A DNA stretch of 64,000 nucleotides from Clostridiales bacterium (GCA_029098165.1 JAQXNU010000206.1:1567-65566), one strand, 5' to 3'. Shown: positions 48 to 62,057, counted from the first letter of the stretch. Numbers and translations are program-made. Notes: generated by a model from the letters alone, not told the origin.

Positions 48-1160
48 ATGAAAACACTGGGAAATAAGCTAGTAAAGGTACTGAAAAGTGTACTTATTGC
101 AATTTGTGCCATAATTGTGTTGGCAGAACTTATATTTTTTATTATGAGAGCGATAAAGTCACAGCAGGCAAAGATAACGACGGAAAATGGAATCGAAAAA
201 ATCGAATATTTAGAATTAGGTGGAATCAAGCAACGGATTATGATTCGAGGAGAGGATCAGAAGAATCCAGTAATTTTATTCTTACATGGTGGCCCTGGAA
301 ATCCAATCCTTTCTTATGCATCTTATATGCAAAAGGGCTTAGAAGATGACTATACTTTTGTTCATTGGGAACAAAGAGGTTGTGGTGATACATATTATAA
401 GAATATCTATGCGGATGTTACGGAAGAACTCCTAATGACTGATCTAGATGAACTGGTGGATATATTAAGAGAAAGATTTCAAAAGAATAAGATCATTATT
501 ATGGGACACTCTTGGGGAACGGTATTAGGAACACAATATTGTAAAGAACATCCCGAGAAAGTACTTGCATACATAGGAACCGGACAGGTTATTGATTTTA
601 CAAAAGGGACCATACTAGCATCCAATCAGGCAATCGATCAGGCGTTACAGGCTGGAAATGATGAGGATGTTAATAAGCTGAAACAGTATCTAGAGGAATA
701 TCAAAATCATAGTGATTACGAAAATATTGATTGGAATAACTTTGATCATCTTAAAGAATTACAATCAAAATACTTATCTTCTCAGAATCGCATGAGTTTT
801 ACAGAGCAGATGTATCTTTTCTTAATGGATAAAGCTACGAATTTTAATGAAGCAAGATGGGCAATCATGAAGCGGGATAAATTTGCAAAAATAGAGAAAA
901 ATCTTGAAAAATACTTATTTAATATTTTTCATGTGGACGAATTAGGATATGAGTATACGGTTCCATTCTACTTAATCGAGGGAGATACGGACTGGGTAAG
1001 CCCTTATCCATTGGTACAGGAATTCTATAAAAAGGTTCAAGCTCCAGAAAAGCAGCTATATATGGTCAAGGATTCTGGTCACTCCTTATTTATGGAACAG
1101 CAGGAGCAGTTTCAAACTGTGATGGAAGAAATCAAGGATAAACTATCAGTAATAGAGTAG
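48..1160 (+). CDS. Alpha/beta hydrolase, proline iminopeptidase (S33)-like, N-terminal membrane anchor
   Basis: HGGPG oxyanion motif, GHSWG nucleophile elbow, C-terminal SGH. ATG at 48 follows GAGAGG (ORF track starts at 27). Confidence 0.8.
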   Translation: MKTLGNKLVKVLKSVLIAICAIIVLAELIFFIMRAIKSQQAKITTENGIEKIEYLELGGIKQRIMIRGEDQKNPVILFLHGGPGNPILSYASYMQKGLEDDYTFVHWEQRGCGDTYYKNIYADVTEELLMTDLDELVDILRERFQKNKIIIMGHSWGTVLGTQYCKEHPEKVLAYIGTGQVIDFTKGTILASNQAIDQALQAGNDEDVNKLKQYLEEYQNHSDYENIDWNNFDHLKELQSKYLSSQNRMSFTEQMYLFLMDKATNFNEARWAIMKRDKFAKIEKNLEKYLFNIFHVDELGYEYTVPFYLIEGDTDWVSPYPLVQEFYKKVQAPEKQLYMVKDSGHSLFMEQQEQFQTVMEEIKDKLSVIE

Positions 1161-1184
1161 GAGCTGAATGTAATATTTTGCTAG

Positions 1185-4259
<3,075 letters not shown>

Positions 4260-10935: not shown

Positions 10936-11123
10936 TTGCGTGTAAAATATAGATATAATAAGATTTACAGGTATTTTGCTTGATTTTATAGCATCATTTA
11001 CGGGTAAATTCAAATAATCTATGGATTTTACAGGTGTCTCCGTTGATATTTGACTGATTTCGACTAGATTTTCAATACGATTTACATGTAAAAAAAATCG
11101 GATTCAAATTTTTACTGTATCGT
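10936..11123. repeat. Intergenic cluster of TTAC-NN-GTAA-like palindromes (locus 1)
   Basis: Copies at 10936 (TTGCGTGTAA), 10965 (TTACAGGTAT), 10998 (TTACGGGTAA), 11027 (TTACAGGTGT), 11082 (TTACATGTAA), 11112 (TTACTGTATC). Confidence 0.65.
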
Positions 11124-27530: not shown

Positions 27531-27591
27531 TTATATGATTTTGCAGGTGATTACATGTAAATTTCTAAGAAATTAAAATTTTACTGTATCG
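27531..27591. repeat. TTAC-NN-GTAA paired unit (locus 2)
   Basis: TTACATGTAA (27551), 20-nt spacer, TTACTGTATCG (27581); same layout as 11082/11112. Confidence 0.6.
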
Positions 27592-40269: not shown

Positions 40270-40284
40270 ATTACATATCGTGAA

Positions 40285-40402
40285 TAGGTTGAGCAAACTT
40301 ACAGAAATGTGAGGACGCAAAGCTCGAAGTCTAACAAAACAGAAATATCTGTTTTTATGATCGTTCAGCTGCAAAGTGTTTTATAACTTTGTAGCTTTTT
40401 TT
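40285..40402 (+). ncRNA. c-di-GMP-I (GEMM) riboswitch 1 with intrinsic terminator
   Basis: GCAAAC-TTACA-GAAA-TGTGAG-GACGCAAAGC...GTCTAA...ATGAT...GCTGC; terminator GCTGCAAAGT/ACTTTGTAGC plus T7. Confidence 0.9.
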
Positions 40403-40511
40403 ACGTTTATAAGAGAATACAAAGCTACGTACATAGGTGAAACAGTACAAAACGAGAAAATTGATGGATTCTGCGGGGATGAAATTAATAGAAGAAACTG
40501 TTGAAACTGAA

Positions 40512-40632
40512 TAGAAAGTGGGCAAACTTACAGAAATGTAAGGACGCAAAGCTTGAAGTCTAAGAAAACATAAGATTATATGTTTTTATGACCGTTCGGC
40601 TGCAAAGTTTAATTTACTTTGCAGTTTTTTTT
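40512..40632 (+). ncRNA. c-di-GMP-I (GEMM) riboswitch 2 with intrinsic terminator
   Basis: GGCAAAC-TTACA-GAAA-TGTAAG-GACGCAAAGC...GTCTAA...ATGAC...GGCTGC; terminator CTGCAAAGT/ACTTTGCAG plus T8. Confidence 0.92.
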
Positions 40633-40721
40633 ATTCAGTAATGTTGCTTTTTATCGAATAAGTGTAGTTATTGTGTTTCTTGTAGGCTATATCATTGATC
40701 AGTCAGGAAAGGATGAAAGGT

Positions 40722-41570
40722 ATGAAGGGGATATTATCATTTGTAAAAACTAATTTGGCTAAGGTACCATCCATGAAGTTAAATGGAATTCGAGAATCTC
40801 AGAATCACTATGACGAGGATACTTCTACAAGCTTTAAAGGAAACTTAGAGATTTCGGATGGAGTCATTGCGTTGGTAGCTCCAATGGGAAGAGATAATTT
40901 GATGGAGAGTGCTCAAGAGATTACGATGGAGGTAGCAGGAAATCGCAAAGAAGCCAAAGAAAATGTACAAGATGCTTTCTTGGATTTAGAACCAGTTGTA
41001 GAACCAGGTACTTTTCAAGTTAGCATCAATAAAAAGAATAATAATGATATTTCTGTTAATGGTGCTTTTTATGATACCCTTGTAAATACTTCCTACGATG
41101 TAATGGCTAAGATTGATAGTATCAAAGGGCAATTAGGACTAAATAATCCGGCAACAGAATTAGTGCTTGGAATGGAAAATGAGATTAGTTCTGTTAAGAC
41201 ATATCTATATAAACAGTATTATAAAAATATCGAAGTCCTTGGTTATACGGTAAAAGCGTCGATGGATTATAATGCAAATGAGTTAGGTATTGAATCTTGT
41301 TTAATCCAAAGTGAGGCACTTGTAAAGAATATTGAAACAATTGTTCCGAAGTTATCGGAAAAGGAGACAAGTGAATGGATTCGTACTCTGTATCCAGAAG
41401 CTACAAAGATTATATCTTCTTTGATCATTTATCCAGATAAATATGGTAAGAGTTTGAAATTAGCTTATCTGTCTTATCTTTATAATCAAAATGATCGTAG
41501 TAGAAGACAGCAGATTATTACGGATGCCAATACTGGAGAAATAATTTACGAAGATGATATGTGTTTTTAG
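40722..41570 (+). CDS. Stand-alone FTP/PepSY-like (M4/M36 protease propeptide-like) protein
   Basis: TYLYKQYYKNIEVLGYTV resembles the FTP motif; LIIYP..LAY...ITDANTGEII resembles PepSY. No HExxH. Confidence 0.6.
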   Translation: MKGILSFVKTNLAKVPSMKLNGIRESQNHYDEDTSTSFKGNLEISDGVIALVAPMGRDNLMESAQEITMEVAGNRKEAKENVQDAFLDLEPVVEPGTFQVSINKKNNNDISVNGAFYDTLVNTSYDVMAKIDSIKGQLGLNNPATELVLGMENEISSVKTYLYKQYYKNIEVLGYTVKASMDYNANELGIESCLIQSEALVKNIETIVPKLSEKETSEWIRTLYPEATKIISSLIIYPDKYGKSLKLAYLSYLYNQNDRSRRQQIITDANTGEIIYEDDMCF

Positions 41571-58651: not shown

Positions 58652-58798
58652 AATCATAACATACGAAGTAGCATAATTTTATCGTTCTAGGCTTTTAATG
58701 TTGAAAATTGTCAATCAATTTTACATCGTATCGAATCTAGTCGGTAATAAATGTGTATGAACATGGAAGATATTGCTGTGAATTATATGGAGGTAAAT

Positions 58799-59827
58799 AT
58801 GGACATTGTGATTCGGAAAATGGAACCCCAAGAAGCTAAAGCTGTCTACAATCTTGGACTTAAAACCTTTCATAGCATGGAAGGAATCTTTATGGGAAAG
58901 CCTAAACAAGCGATAGTAGCTGTTAGTGGAGAGGAGATTGTCGGAGGCATTACTTATTCGACTCATAAATACAAAGATGGAGTACTTGGATATGTCGATT
59001 ATGCATTTGTGAATGATAAATATCATGGTCGAGGTATTGGATCAAAACTTTATACTGCAGCTGTGAGGGAATTAAATGGTTTTGGTTGTACGCAAGTCAT
59101 TAGCTTAGTTCGTGGTGATAATCCAGGATCATTTATGCTTTTTGAACGTCAGAATATGCAAAGATGTTCCATGGGGGAAGCAAAACGTTTACTTGGAACA
59201 TCCGGATGGTTGTATCTGCTATTTCGCTCGGTTCTAAGTTGGGGACCTGCGATGGACTGTTACCTTAGCAATGCGAAAAAGAAGTGTGACGGGATTTCTC
59301 AATTTTTTCTATATCTCCTAGTCAATTTAGCATTTCTTTTGCTTGGAATCATGGTATATAAAGAACAAATGCCACTAGCATTGGCTGGAGCAGGAACTGT
59401 GATGATCGTTGGCTCAATCTTAGGAGCAAGTATATGTCTTTCGGAAAAAGGACAATACCATTTTCGGTTATCTACAGGCGGTGGTTATGTGACTGCGATT
59501 GTCTCTGCACTTGGTGGTTTTTTCCCGATGTTTGGTAAATGGTATCCTCAGAAGTTTGATGGATCTGAGAAACAGAAAGCGGAATTAGGCGTTTCAGCAA
59601 TTATTGAGTGGGTTGGAATCCTGTTGTTGTATGTTGCGATGAAGGAAGGATTCTCTGGAAATGCCTATGCAGAAAGTGTGGCATATTATTCTTCTGTTAT
59701 GACGGTATTTCGTATGATACCGACGTTTCCGTTTAATGAATATGGGGCACGGCGTGTGTATTCTTATAATAAAGGTCAGTATGCTGTCTTGTGGATCCTT
59801 AGTGGATTGGTACTGTATTTTGTATAA
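58799..59827 (+). CDS. GNAT domain fused to a multi-pass membrane domain
   Basis: FVNDKYHGRGIGSKL and S...FE GNAT motifs, then about 6 TM with PTFPFNEYG; GGAGGT RBS. Confidence 0.8.
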   Translation: MDIVIRKMEPQEAKAVYNLGLKTFHSMEGIFMGKPKQAIVAVSGEEIVGGITYSTHKYKDGVLGYVDYAFVNDKYHGRGIGSKLYTAAVRELNGFGCTQVISLVRGDNPGSFMLFERQNMQRCSMGEAKRLLGTSGWLYLLFRSVLSWGPAMDCYLSNAKKKCDGISQFFLYLLVNLAFLLLGIMVYKEQMPLALAGAGTVMIVGSILGASICLSEKGQYHFRLSTGGGYVTAIVSALGGFFPMFGKWYPQKFDGSEKQKAELGVSAIIEWVGILLLYVAMKEGFSGNAYAESVAYYSSVMTVFRMIPTFPFNEYGARRVYSYNKGQYAVLWILSGLVLYFV

Positions 59828-60003
59828 TGAGGAAAATGGGGGAGGTTGAAGTTATCTGTATCTATTGTATGCCTTGCCGATATTACATGCCGGACAGAAG
59901 ATTCCAAAAAGTACGATTTCATACCAGAGAGTACGGATATGATGAGAACAGGACTAAATGGATGGGTGCTAGAGTGCGGGGAAAATTGAAAACTGGGTGA
60001 CAT

Positions 60004-60288
60004 TTACGGGTAATAAATTAGCAAGTACATATTATAAAATTAGTGATTACGTGTAATAAATAAGATTATGGTAAAATTACAGGTAAAAAAGTTGATATAG
60101 GCCCAGTGGAAAGAGCAAGATTACGTGTAAAAACAGAGAATATTCAAAAATTATACGTAATCCTGTATCCAATATCAATTGAAATCTATCTAAACCTTTA
60201 TAATAATAGGGTAAAATCTATGAATTTAAAATTTTTACATGTAATCATAGTCAGATATGTCTAGTTTCATAATGATTTTTACGTGTAG
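60004..60288. repeat. Array of TTAC-NN-GTAA palindromes with alternating about 44/30-bp spacing (locus 3)
   Basis: Exact copies at 60004, 60047, 60077, 60121 and 60235; one-mismatch copies at 60151 and 60279. Confidence 0.8.
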
Positions 60289-60385
60289 AATTCCTATACT
60301 TATATTTTTTACACTATCACAATCAAAAAAGCCAAAGAATCAATGAACATTCACGGTACTCCTAAGAAAATGTCGAAACTGGACA

Positions 60386-60645
60386 TTGAACTAACTGACA
60401 TATCGTGATATGATATGTTCCAGAATATGAGAACGGAAGGAATAAGTTATGTATCGTCCAATTTAGAATTACGTAAATAGTATACAAGATAAGTTATCGA
60501 GTTGCCTCTTAAGGTTAAAGTTAGGATAACTCGAATTACTTATCAAGATATATATCAGAAGATAGGCGTTTGTCTGATTAGATCAAAGCTCTAAGGGGCA
60601 TGTGGCCTTTCAAATTTGTATGCATTAAGTTGCATACTTGAAAGG
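60386..60645 (+). promoter_or_regulatory. Promoter and structured leader with uORFs and an RBS-sequestering hairpin
   Basis: TTGAAC, 17 bp, TG-n-TATGAT (60409). uORFs at 60427-60480 and 60449-60466. Hairpin CCTTTCAA..GTATGCA/TGCATAC-TTGAAAGG at 60606-60645 covers the RBS. Confidence 0.55.
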
Positions 60646-60655
60646 ACGGGACATA

Positions 60656-61700
60656 ATGAAATCGAATAGTAATATAAAGATAATGTATGCCATTTCTCTG
60701 TTGGAGGGAATGGTTTTTTATGGTGCAATTGCGACTTTGTATCTACAGGCAATTGGTATAAGTGTATTTCAGATTACAATCATCGAAAGTATTTCCATGG
60801 TGCTTGCGATTGCATTAGAACTGCTATGGGGAGTCCTTGCAGAAAAAATCGGATATAAGAATGCTATGATTTTCTGCAGTATCATATATGTTATCTCGAA
60901 AATCATCTTTTGGAAGGCGGATGGATTTGGAATGCTTTTATTCGAGCGAATTCTATTATCTATTGTAATTCCGGTTATTCTGGAGTTGGTGAGAGTATAC
61001 TGTATCTGTCTTGTGAGAAAAAGGATGCACATAAAGTGTTTAGTATCTATGATGGTCTTGGCACCGATGGTTTGATCATAGCTTCAGCCATCTATAATGT
61101 ATTTATGCATGGTGATTTTCGAATAGCAGGATTTGCTACAGTTATTACATATGGAATTGCTATGTTACTTACATTTTTCCTAAAAGAAGTGAGACCTGCG
61201 GAAAAGAAGGATGAACATCCATTTAGAGAATTCATTGTGATTTTTAAGCAGATTTTAAAAAGGAAGGAGTTATTCCTATTTTTAATTGCAATAGCACTCT
61301 TCCGAGAGTGCAATCAGACGATTACAGTCTTTTTGAATCAATTATAGTACGTTCGTGCTGGTATGAGTGATGCTATGATTGGCTGGGCATATGTTGTAAT
61401 GACACTCATTGTTCTGTTTGGTATGAGATCGATTTCATTTGTGAGACGATTTGGAAAAAGGAATGCTGGAATTCTGTTGTTTGGTATGGCTGGGATTTCA
61501 TGTAGCATCTTAGCTATAACGACAAATTCCATTATATCGGTACTCTCCATTCTTTGCATACGAATCGCATTTACTATGATAACACCATTGTCTCAAACCA
61601 TTCAACATAATTTAGTCAGCCATAAAAATCGTGCAACAGCGATAAGTGTAAATGCGGTCATCATGGATGGGGTAGCAGTTGCCACGGTAAATCTGGTATG
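60656..61700 (+). pseudogene. MFS transporter pseudogene
   Basis: LELLWGVLAEKIGYKN motif A; frameshift near 60970; in-frame TAG at 61345-61347; sequence loses MFS character after NRATAIS..MDGVAVA. Confidence 0.8.
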
Positions 61701-62057
61701 TAAAGTACAGGTTACAATAAGTAATATTTCTGTGAACAAGGACACGATTCCTCTAAATTCGCTCAGATTCATGTTCTTATAATTACTAAGATGGAAGATA
61801 AATAGTAGGATGATCGCATAACCAGTTATGATTTTGCCTTTATGGAAAGGATTCTCCGAATCAGCTTCATGTCCTTTTATATTCCAGATAATGCTGATTG
61901 CGAAATGAAAACCTATTGCTACAGCAAGAAAGATCCCTGTTGTTTTATAATTCGAATTATAAGGGATTCTTCCGTATAAAACAAGTGACATTAGGACTCC
62001 GTGCAATAAAAATAATAGAAACGTGATCGTACCTAAGATAGAGTGTTGTTTTCTTAT
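61690..62057 (-). pseudogene. Small membrane-protein gene with start codon apparently mutated to ATA and 3' end truncated
   Basis: Minus-strand GGAGG RBS, 5 nt, ATA at 62057 in frame with ORF 61602-62006 (RKQHSILGTITFLLFLLHG...GFHFAISI). The 3' part runs into the antisense of the MFS remnant. Confidence 0.5.

Follow-up and report, generated by a model that had tools for sequence, protein, structure and literature searches.

A phased array of TTAC-NN-GTAA palindromes and a dispersed intergenic repeat family in a Clostridiales genome

A regularly spaced array of short palindromic boxes was analysed in a 64,000-nt stretch of the genome of a Clostridiales bacterium (C206:1567-65566; the whole stretch is hereafter called the window). 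The array is real and statistically overwhelming, and it is almost certainly a member of a dispersed repeat family. The array is best explained as a copy, long resident at its locus and by now strongly diverged, of an interspersed intergenic repeat that is confined to a narrow lineage. A literature search found no description of TTACNNGTAA, of a relevant 74-bp repeat, or of palindromic intergenic repeats of Lachnospiraceae, and the family is apparently undescribed.

Layout of the array in the window

The array consists of nine boxes or half-boxes at 60004-60318 and reaches past position 60288, where an earlier note made from the sequence alone had placed its end. The box starts are 43, 30, 44, 30, 54, 30, 44, and 30 bp apart, and the order of the boxes, B0-A1-B1-A2-B2-A3-B3-A4-B4*, corresponds one-to-one to the plan of the canonical element described below. 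The pattern scan and the sequence itself bore out every exact, near, and half-site position claimed in the note. Exact TTACNNGTAA (TTAC-NN-GTAA) boxes start at 60004, 60047, 60077, 60121, and 60235, boxes with one mismatch start at 60151 (TTATACGTAA) and 60279 (TTACGTGTAG), and the right (inner) half of a box is located at 60205-60214 (AATAGGGTAA). A terminal half-box containing the left half-site only was added here at 60309-60318 (TTACACTATC), 30 bp past the box at 60279. The same type of end is also present in the canonical copies, at 11082-11121 and 27551-27590 in the window, and in the array of contig C70. The components of the array are as follows:

60004-60318, plus strand: whole diverged copy of the TTAC-box element, recognised by box positions and by a plan that matches the canonical element
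60004-60013, no strand: box B0, TTACGGGTAA, exact match
60047-60086, plus strand: unit 1, box A1 (TTACGTGTAA), a 20-bp AT-rich loop, and box B1 (TTACAGGTAA)
60121-60160, plus strand: unit 2, box A2 (TTACGTGTAA), the loop aaacagagaatattcaaaaa, and box B2 (TTATACGTAA)
60161-60204, no strand: spacer of 44 bp in place of 34 bp, longer by approximately one helical turn
60205-60244, plus strand: unit 3, the inner half-site of A3 only (AATAGGGTAA), a loop, and box B3 (TTACATGTAA)
60279-60318, plus strand: terminal unit, box A4 (TTACGTGTAG), a T-rich loop, and the left half-site B4* (TTACACTATC)

The 64-kb window contains nine exact boxes; dinucleotide-preserving shuffles predict 1.06, and a count of nine was reached in none of 100 such shuffles. 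The initial estimate of approximately 0.01 exact boxes expected by chance is close to the value obtained from the genome rate, approximately 0.013 in 285 bp. The array was not detected as a 74-bp repeat by the Tandem Repeats Finder program, which indicates that its spacers are unique, in line with the earlier claim. Two other loci that the note had pointed out in the window, at 10.9-11.1 kb and at 27.55 kb, also proved to be real (10936-11121, with six boxes, and a pair at 27551/27581).

The repeat family in the source genome and its relatives

The search was extended to the assembly that contains the window (3.755 Mb, 289 contigs, 36.5% GC). Single boxes are not notably enriched genome-wide (175 exact boxes, with approximately 128 expected); 63 of the 175 fall into 17 clusters, most of which show the 30/43-44/74 spacing. 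According to a census with an nhmmer profile, the genome contains approximately 20 loci. Eleven to thirteen of these belong to a single dispersed element of 350-460 bp; the copies are 80-90% identical, including the spacers, and have unique flanks. The loci are distributed as follows:

Canonical copies: contigs C14, C27, C49, C81, C84, C104, C175, C187, C190, C214, and C279
Partial canonical copies: contigs C135 (a deletion derivative) and C224
Diverged arrays: 10936-11121, 27551-27590, and 60004-60318 in the window; C206:66998-67184, just past the window end; contigs C70, C4, and C140
10936-11121, plus strand: second diverged array of the window, with boxes at 10936, 10965, 10998, 11030, 11082, and 11112 (spacing of 29, 33, 32, 52, and 30 bp)
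27551-27590, plus strand: solitary unit of the terminal type, composed of TTACATGTAA, 20 bp, and TTACTGTATC

The canonical element is composed of approximately 4.5 tandem 74-bp units (period range 73-75). Each unit includes box A, a 20-bp loop, the inverted box B, and a spacer of approximately 34 bp, and the A-loop-B part is a 40-bp interrupted palindrome. The loop is AT-rich and purine-skewed and often contains AAGAAA(A)TCAAG. The canonical plan, B0-A1-B1-A2-B2-A3-B3-A4-B4*, has box starts 44, 30, 44, 30, 43, 30, 44, and 30 bp apart; its first module is a decayed unit, and its last box has the left half only.

As for orientation, copies are found in either direction with respect to the neighbouring genes, four of them lying between convergent genes and none between divergent genes. 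With respect to replication, 14 arrays are co-oriented and four or five are opposed, while the canonical copies alone (nine versus four) show no significant bias. Four of the approximately seven diverged arrays are located on a single 67-kb contig, C206, which makes up 1.8% of the genome, and all are co-oriented with genes. A promoter of its own was not found in the canonical consensus. According to ORF listing and BLAST, the only neighbour families common to the copies are generic ABC, histidine-kinase, and MATE paralogues.

In addition, a second dispersed module is located immediately to the left of many canonical copies (C190:12729-12830, C279, C187, C49, and C224). It contains GGGCTGTCGYACTAAGTTACAGATGGTTCCTTAAA followed by a strong hairpin (aacacgggttcacttag...ctaagtgaacccgtgtt), and further shared hairpin modules (gccgtttagcgat...atcgctaaagcgac) are present to the right of canonical copies. 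In this genome, several repeat families combine into mosaics between genes.

Relatives were searched for with a four-box pattern in one genome per prokaryote species and in metagenome and viral collections. Among the prokaryote species, the pattern was found only in Lachnospiraceae bacterium UBA1066, at four loci, and in the metagenome collection it was found in seven contigs; the viral collection contained none, and the arrays are absent from plasmid and phage collections. The arrays of the relatives keep the 30/44 alternation exactly and contain up to 11.4 tandem units. The hosts of these arrays have a GC content of 42-55%. The spacers are GC-rich and show no relation either between arrays or to the spacers of the window genome, while the spacers inside one array are variants of each other. 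In the GC-richer hosts, the loop is 70% AT, whereas the spacer is 40% AT, and spacer length is 34 ± 1 bp across arrays with unrelated spacer sequences. Contigs L003 and L006 represent the same locus (gatC, UBA1066-like organisms) from two samples and contain four and three units, respectively; therefore, unit number varies between strains. Within the searches made, and apart from the source organism, the family was found only in one species of Lachnospiraceae and in a small number of metagenome contigs. The undescribed repeat family, which had been one of the two main readings offered in the note, is the one established by these data: it comprises approximately 20 loci, one dispersed 350-460-bp element among them, and relatives elsewhere.

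One contig of the relatives, L005, contains a 340-aa ORF (549-1571, minus strand) between two 74-bp arrays of the same orientation, with 6 and 11 units. By eye, the product resembles clostridial transposase-like proteins of the PD-(D/E)XK type; no match was found in Pfam or NCBIfam and no homologue in the source genome. Since it belongs to no family and has no such homologue, this protein was set aside as the cognate protein of the arrays, and it is more probable that the ORF was inserted into a single array.

The 40 + 34 bp geometry of repeat and spacer in the relatives would trigger CRISPR finders, and short peptide motifs can be read from the boxes, but a degenerate or orphan CRISPR, or a decayed coding region of a repeat protein, can hardly be what the array represents. 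The CRISPR interpretation was rejected because the dispersed copies, 80-90% identical, comprise entire arrays together with their "spacers", and because spacers within an array of the relatives are variants of one another. The spacers have no match in phage or plasmid records. No cas genes are present among the Pfam-scanned ORFs beside the window array, and ORF listing and BLAST, the only analyses of the flanks of other copies, revealed neither a shared neighbour family nor cas. The decayed repeat-protein frame, which the note had named as an alternative to its own reading, did not hold, since the period of 74 bp is not divisible by three and no open frame runs across the array; the only frame that overlaps it, a 52-aa GTG frame, is due to chance. 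The window array and six related loci gave no match to the 4227 Rfam covariance models at gathering and E-value thresholds, and no tRNA-like units were found by ARAGORN.

The window array itself is intergenic and lies in a 640-bp gap upstream of a gene of the MFS family. Its neighbours, all outside the element, are as follows:

58751-59827, plus strand: GNAT acetyltransferase gene, upstream neighbour
60386-60414, plus strand: promoter-like site, TTGAAC, 17 bp, and TATGAT with TG (consensus match only)
60638-61782, plus strand: MFS transporter gene in three frames, downstream neighbour

The three MFS frames (60638-61075, 60910-61347, and 61363-61782) match successive parts of the MFS_1 profile, and the same three-way split was called in an independent Logan contig, L012; the gene is probably a pseudogene. 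The promoter-like site begins approximately 70 bp beyond the array and, judged by its match to the consensus, probably serves the MFS gene; a promoter scan of the window gave scores no better than those of shuffles. The exact GNAT gene was otherwise found on one contig only, which represents the same strain.

The position upstream of the MFS gene and the palindromic boxes, which are typical of operators, could point to a local operator array that controls this gene or the GNAT operon. This possibility is very remote. The same element occupies approximately 20 unrelated loci, four of which lie between convergent genes with no promoter to control, and the neighbours share no gene family beyond the generic paralogues. 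The MFS gene is broken, the best promoter-like site is outside the array, and GNAT homologues in other taxa (54-56% identical) have no array downstream. The genome-wide distribution already largely refutes local control.

Two further features of the window deserve mention. A Cys-rich frame of 57 codons (MRKMGEVEVICIYCMPCRYYMPDRRF...) at 59827-60000 starts at the GNAT stop codon and closes 4 bp short of box B0; it lacks a Pfam match and was called as a gene in L012 as well. A tandem pair of complete c-di-GMP-I riboswitch aptamers (40282-40376 and 40511-40607; 68.9 and 60.4 bits) lies upstream of the ORF 40695-41570.

Probable constraint on the boxes and candidate functional forms

Comparison of the window copy with the canonical consensus showed that 62 of 72 half-site positions match TTAC/GTAA, whereas the similarity of its eight loops and spacers to the canonical ones, assessed segment by segment, is that of shuffles (z from -0.4 to 1.8). 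Similarly, in 10 aligned canonical copies the half-sites are conserved at 93.9% and the non-box columns at 86.0% (permutation p ~1e-4). According to sensitive BLAST, identity to the canonical copies is approximately 61% for the window array, 64% for the C70 and 11-kb arrays, and 67% for C206:66998, and every diverged array is a singleton without a close paralogue. Such graded divergence of singletons fits long residence in place rather than the recent spread of a subfamily.

The distances between adjacent boxes (164 in total) are 30 bp (79 cases), 28-29 bp (5), 43-45 bp (74), 33 bp (2), and 54 bp (2), and two gaps of "84" bp conceal a step of 54 and one of approximately 52-54 bp. None of the 164 distances was recorded at 35-42 or 46-53 bp. 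The rare variants of 33, 52, and 54 bp occur in the window array, in C104, in C4, and in the 11-kb array; the clustering of the distances, with these gaps between clusters, indicates that the variants, only about seven in number, depart from 44 bp by approximately one helical turn. In old copies, as in hosts whose GC contents lie approximately 14 percentage points apart, nothing but the palindrome, the AT-rich 20-bp loop, and the spacing persists. Enrichment and conservation of spacing, on which the note had made its reading depend, are thus seen both genome-wide and across species. From these sequence comparisons we infer, with good support, that selection acts on the boxes and on the distances between them. 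A part of the fixed spacing could result from descent plus tandem duplication, not from constraint.

The form in which the boxes would act is a separate question. The favoured reading, to which we give an even chance, is that of a double-stranded DNA platform carrying many sites for one palindrome-binding protein. Each 10-bp palindrome would be a putative site for a dimer of a single sequence-specific protein that binds double-stranded DNA, and the two boxes of a unit, 30 bp apart, would flank a bendable AT-rich segment. Distances of 30, 44, and 74 bp correspond to approximately 2.9, 4.2, and 7.0 helical turns, which would bring the boxes close to one face of the helix. With units repeated every 74 bp, i.e., approximately seven turns, the sites would face roughly one side, and the bound dimers may act cooperatively, so that the DNA is bridged or wrapped and a nucleoprotein array of defined form results.

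This elaborates the suggestion of the note that the boxes are landing pads for a DNA-binding protein. Indirectly in its favour, boxes and spacing survive where the intervals between them have been randomised, half-sites of the young copies are better conserved than their surroundings, and the spacing variants differ by steps of approximately 10 bp. No binder was identified, and among the ORFs in the flanks of the arrays, both in the genome and at related loci, no candidate gene travels with the arrays. The more specific roles that had been proposed, a silencer of accessory DNA or an accessory site of a recombinase, are without support.

Two types of candidate binder were considered and set aside. 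The genome encodes one Spo0J, and the sole near-canonical parS detected lies within the Spo0J gene itself; there is also one ParB-like gene, apparently on a mobile element. Nothing connects either of them to the arrays, and a ParB/Noc-type binder was not retained. The other candidate came from two unrelated viral contigs, where the same 10-bp palindrome is repeated in 8-10 copies with a 15-bp period (L015:2018-2168 and L016:4231-4345), as TTACCCGTAA/TTACCGGTAA in L015 and as TTACACGTAA in L016. In L015, the array falls within an HTH_36-like gene, in its 3' part, and reads there as VT(R/G)NE repeats, an arrangement that resembles the origin inside the O gene of phage lambda. The architecture of these 15-bp-period arrays is unrelated to that of the 74-bp family. 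By analogy with such iteron-like arrays, the TTAC-NN-GTAA palindrome is a plausible protein site. The HTH_36-like phage protein was dismissed as the binder since it has no homologue in the source genome.

A second reading likens the arrays to REP/BIME elements and assumes that they act as single-stranded DNA or as RNA, through the 40-nt hairpin formed by A, the loop, and B. Such hairpins could be spread by an HUH enzyme (RAYT/IS200-type) or another structure-specific enzyme, or they could serve in RNA as a 3'-end stabiliser or a terminator-like structure. We consider this, in all its variants, a tentative possibility. In the arrays of UBA1066 and the metagenomes, all 10 bp of A are complementary to B, the centres compensating each other (CC/GG and CT/AG), and the centre positions covary (A+4 and B+5 are paired in 90% of units, with 47% expected). 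The L005 array folds very stably (z = -8.8), and L003 and L006 differ by one unit at the same locus. Tandem intergenic mosaics with a variable number of units, often 3' of genes, resemble BIMEs (PMC3333891, PMC2817692). The perfect inverted boxes and stable folds of the relatives fit a single-strand hairpin at least as well.

The source genome is less consistent with hairpins. The centre is mismatched there, with a conserved G.A in 9 of 20 representative units, and the fold of the window array barely exceeds those of shuffles (z = -2.4 and -1.5); unit 2 is the sole unit of this array with an A-B hairpin in the predicted minimum-energy RNA fold. Base-pair covariation extends no stem past the 10-bp boxes. 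The loop is fixed at 20 nt although its sequence varies, and the spacing between hairpins changes by steps of approximately 10 bp, neither of which is expected for hairpins of RNA or single-stranded DNA. The orientation of the arrays relative to neighbouring transcription is mixed, and a conserved tetranucleotide tag of the GTAG/CGTC type is absent. A tblastn search with an approximate IS200 TnpA query revealed no intact Y1/IS200-type transposase in the assembly, which has 289 contigs and may be incomplete; the search gave an IS200-type remnant at C162:15066-15149, with 33 codons (MDMNSLVHTTRECKYHLVFAPKYRRQIIYWTT) followed by a stop. Covariation of the centres would also arise from an asymmetric 10-mer, present in inverted orientation, that is recognised by a protein. 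Since it is not specific to hairpins, the double-stranded DNA platform is favoured, followed by the hairpin and then by a selfish element.

The last of these readings takes the family to be a non-autonomous mobile element (MITE or satellite), purely selfish and of no use to the host, whose boxes are transposase sites and whose box conservation reflects old transposition-competent subfamilies rather than selection at each locus. The 11-13 young copies, with unique flanks, both orientations, and modular ends, agree with this assumption, as do the C135 deletion derivative and the location of the elements within repeat-rich mosaic intergenic regions; transposon ends with multiple sites are known in Tn7 and Mu. 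We nevertheless judge it improbable. The diverged arrays (60 kb, 11 kb, C206:66998, C70, C4, and C140) are singletons, and each would have to be a one-copy subfamily of its own. In a comparison of eleven copies with one another, no clear terminal inverted repeat or target-site duplication is visible, their ends being fuzzy and mosaic. No transposase gene is located beside the arrays in the source genome or at the related loci, and the absence of the arrays from plasmid and phage collections also speaks against selfish spread.

Comparison with known systems and significance

The closest described analogue of the TTAC-box family is the STAR elements (Cramton et al. 2000). In Staphylococcus aureus, STAR consists of a 14-bp motif and a 40-44-bp spacer and occupies a dozen or more intergenic loci per genome; its spacers differ between loci, the number of units varies, and "start" and "anchor" ends are distinguished (PMC3532100). 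Conservation of STAR suggests a function, and neither a function nor a binder is known (PMC3532100). These elements have been classed among "false CRISPRs" (PMC5294841). Like STAR, the TTAC-box family belongs to Firmicutes and combines a short motif, a fixed period, many intergenic loci, locus-specific spacers, a variable number of units, and end modules; a motif of fixed period at intergenic loci, with locus-specific spacers and variable units, places it in a STAR-like class. Unlike the GC-rich direct repeats of STAR (TNTGTTGNGGCCCN; T(G/A/T)TGTTG(G/T)GGCCC(C/A)), the TTAC-box is an AT-rich 10-bp palindrome arranged in inverted pairs with 30/44 spacing. The two have no sequence similarity, and the TTAC-box family is known only from a narrow Lachnospiraceae-related lineage.

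REP elements are GC-rich hairpins of 20-40 bp with a GTAG/CGTC tag and alternating orientation, present in hundreds of copies mostly in Proteobacteria, and BIMEs bind IHF, gyrase, and Pol I (PMC3333891, PMC2817692). The TTAC-box family shares with them palindromic units, regular tandem mosaics of variable number, linkers of fixed length, intergenic position, often after gene ends, and, on the favoured reading, the character of a protein-binding platform. It differs in its direct units, a 10-bp AT-rich stem, a 20-nt loop, the lack of a tag, and only approximately 20 loci; a RAYT gene was not found with the approximate IS200 TnpA query in the 289-contig assembly.

Modular composition is also characteristic of the BOX elements of Streptococcus pneumoniae (A-B(n)-C, with a variable number of internal units) and of the NIME/dRS3 repeats of Neisseria, in which short palindromic boxes with a variable centre are interleaved with longer repeat segments. 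To our knowledge, neither is related in sequence to the TTAC-box family or has a strict phasing of two boxes by helical turns. Among tandem centromere and iteron arrays, the sopC site of the F plasmid contains 12 units of 43 bp, in each of which SopB binds a 16-bp palindrome. By analogy, the tandem units of the present family, with a short palindrome per dimer, may have a spacing that permits a higher-order nucleoprotein complex. Sites of the sopC type are single loci beside partition or replication genes on plasmids and phages, whereas the TTAC-box arrays occupy approximately 20 chromosomal loci without a partner gene and are flanked by chromosomal housekeeping or transporter genes. The family is not related in sequence to any of these systems and differs from all of them in the paired inverted AT-rich palindrome of each unit together with strict helical-turn phasing.

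Interspersed repeats of the STAR, BOX, and BIME types are common, and most have no known function or binder. Against this background, the TTAC-box family provides an unusually clean signal of constraint and leads to a testable hypothesis, in which a single dimeric protein has two sites in every 74 bp and all of these sites share a helical face. The family also offers a defined bait for finding a novel protein, of the nucleoid or of a mobile element, in the Lachnospiraceae, which are a major clade of the gut. Since the arrays of the relatives, with a 40-bp repeat and a 34-bp spacer, are prone to be miscalled as orphan CRISPRs, a description of the family improves annotation.

A bolder and rather doubtful version of the platform reading is that the arrays are landing pads maintained by the host on its chromosome, on which a palindrome-binding protein would assemble into a positioned wrapping or bridging particle, specific to a Lachnospiraceae lineage, at approximately 20 intergenic sites. 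If so, the in-phase boxes, two per 74 bp, would correspond to approximately one superhelical turn, and each array may act as a domain boundary, an insulator, or a centromere-like site. Spacer length rather than spacer sequence would then be the selected property, and the family would serve as a natural ruler for the geometry of the complex.
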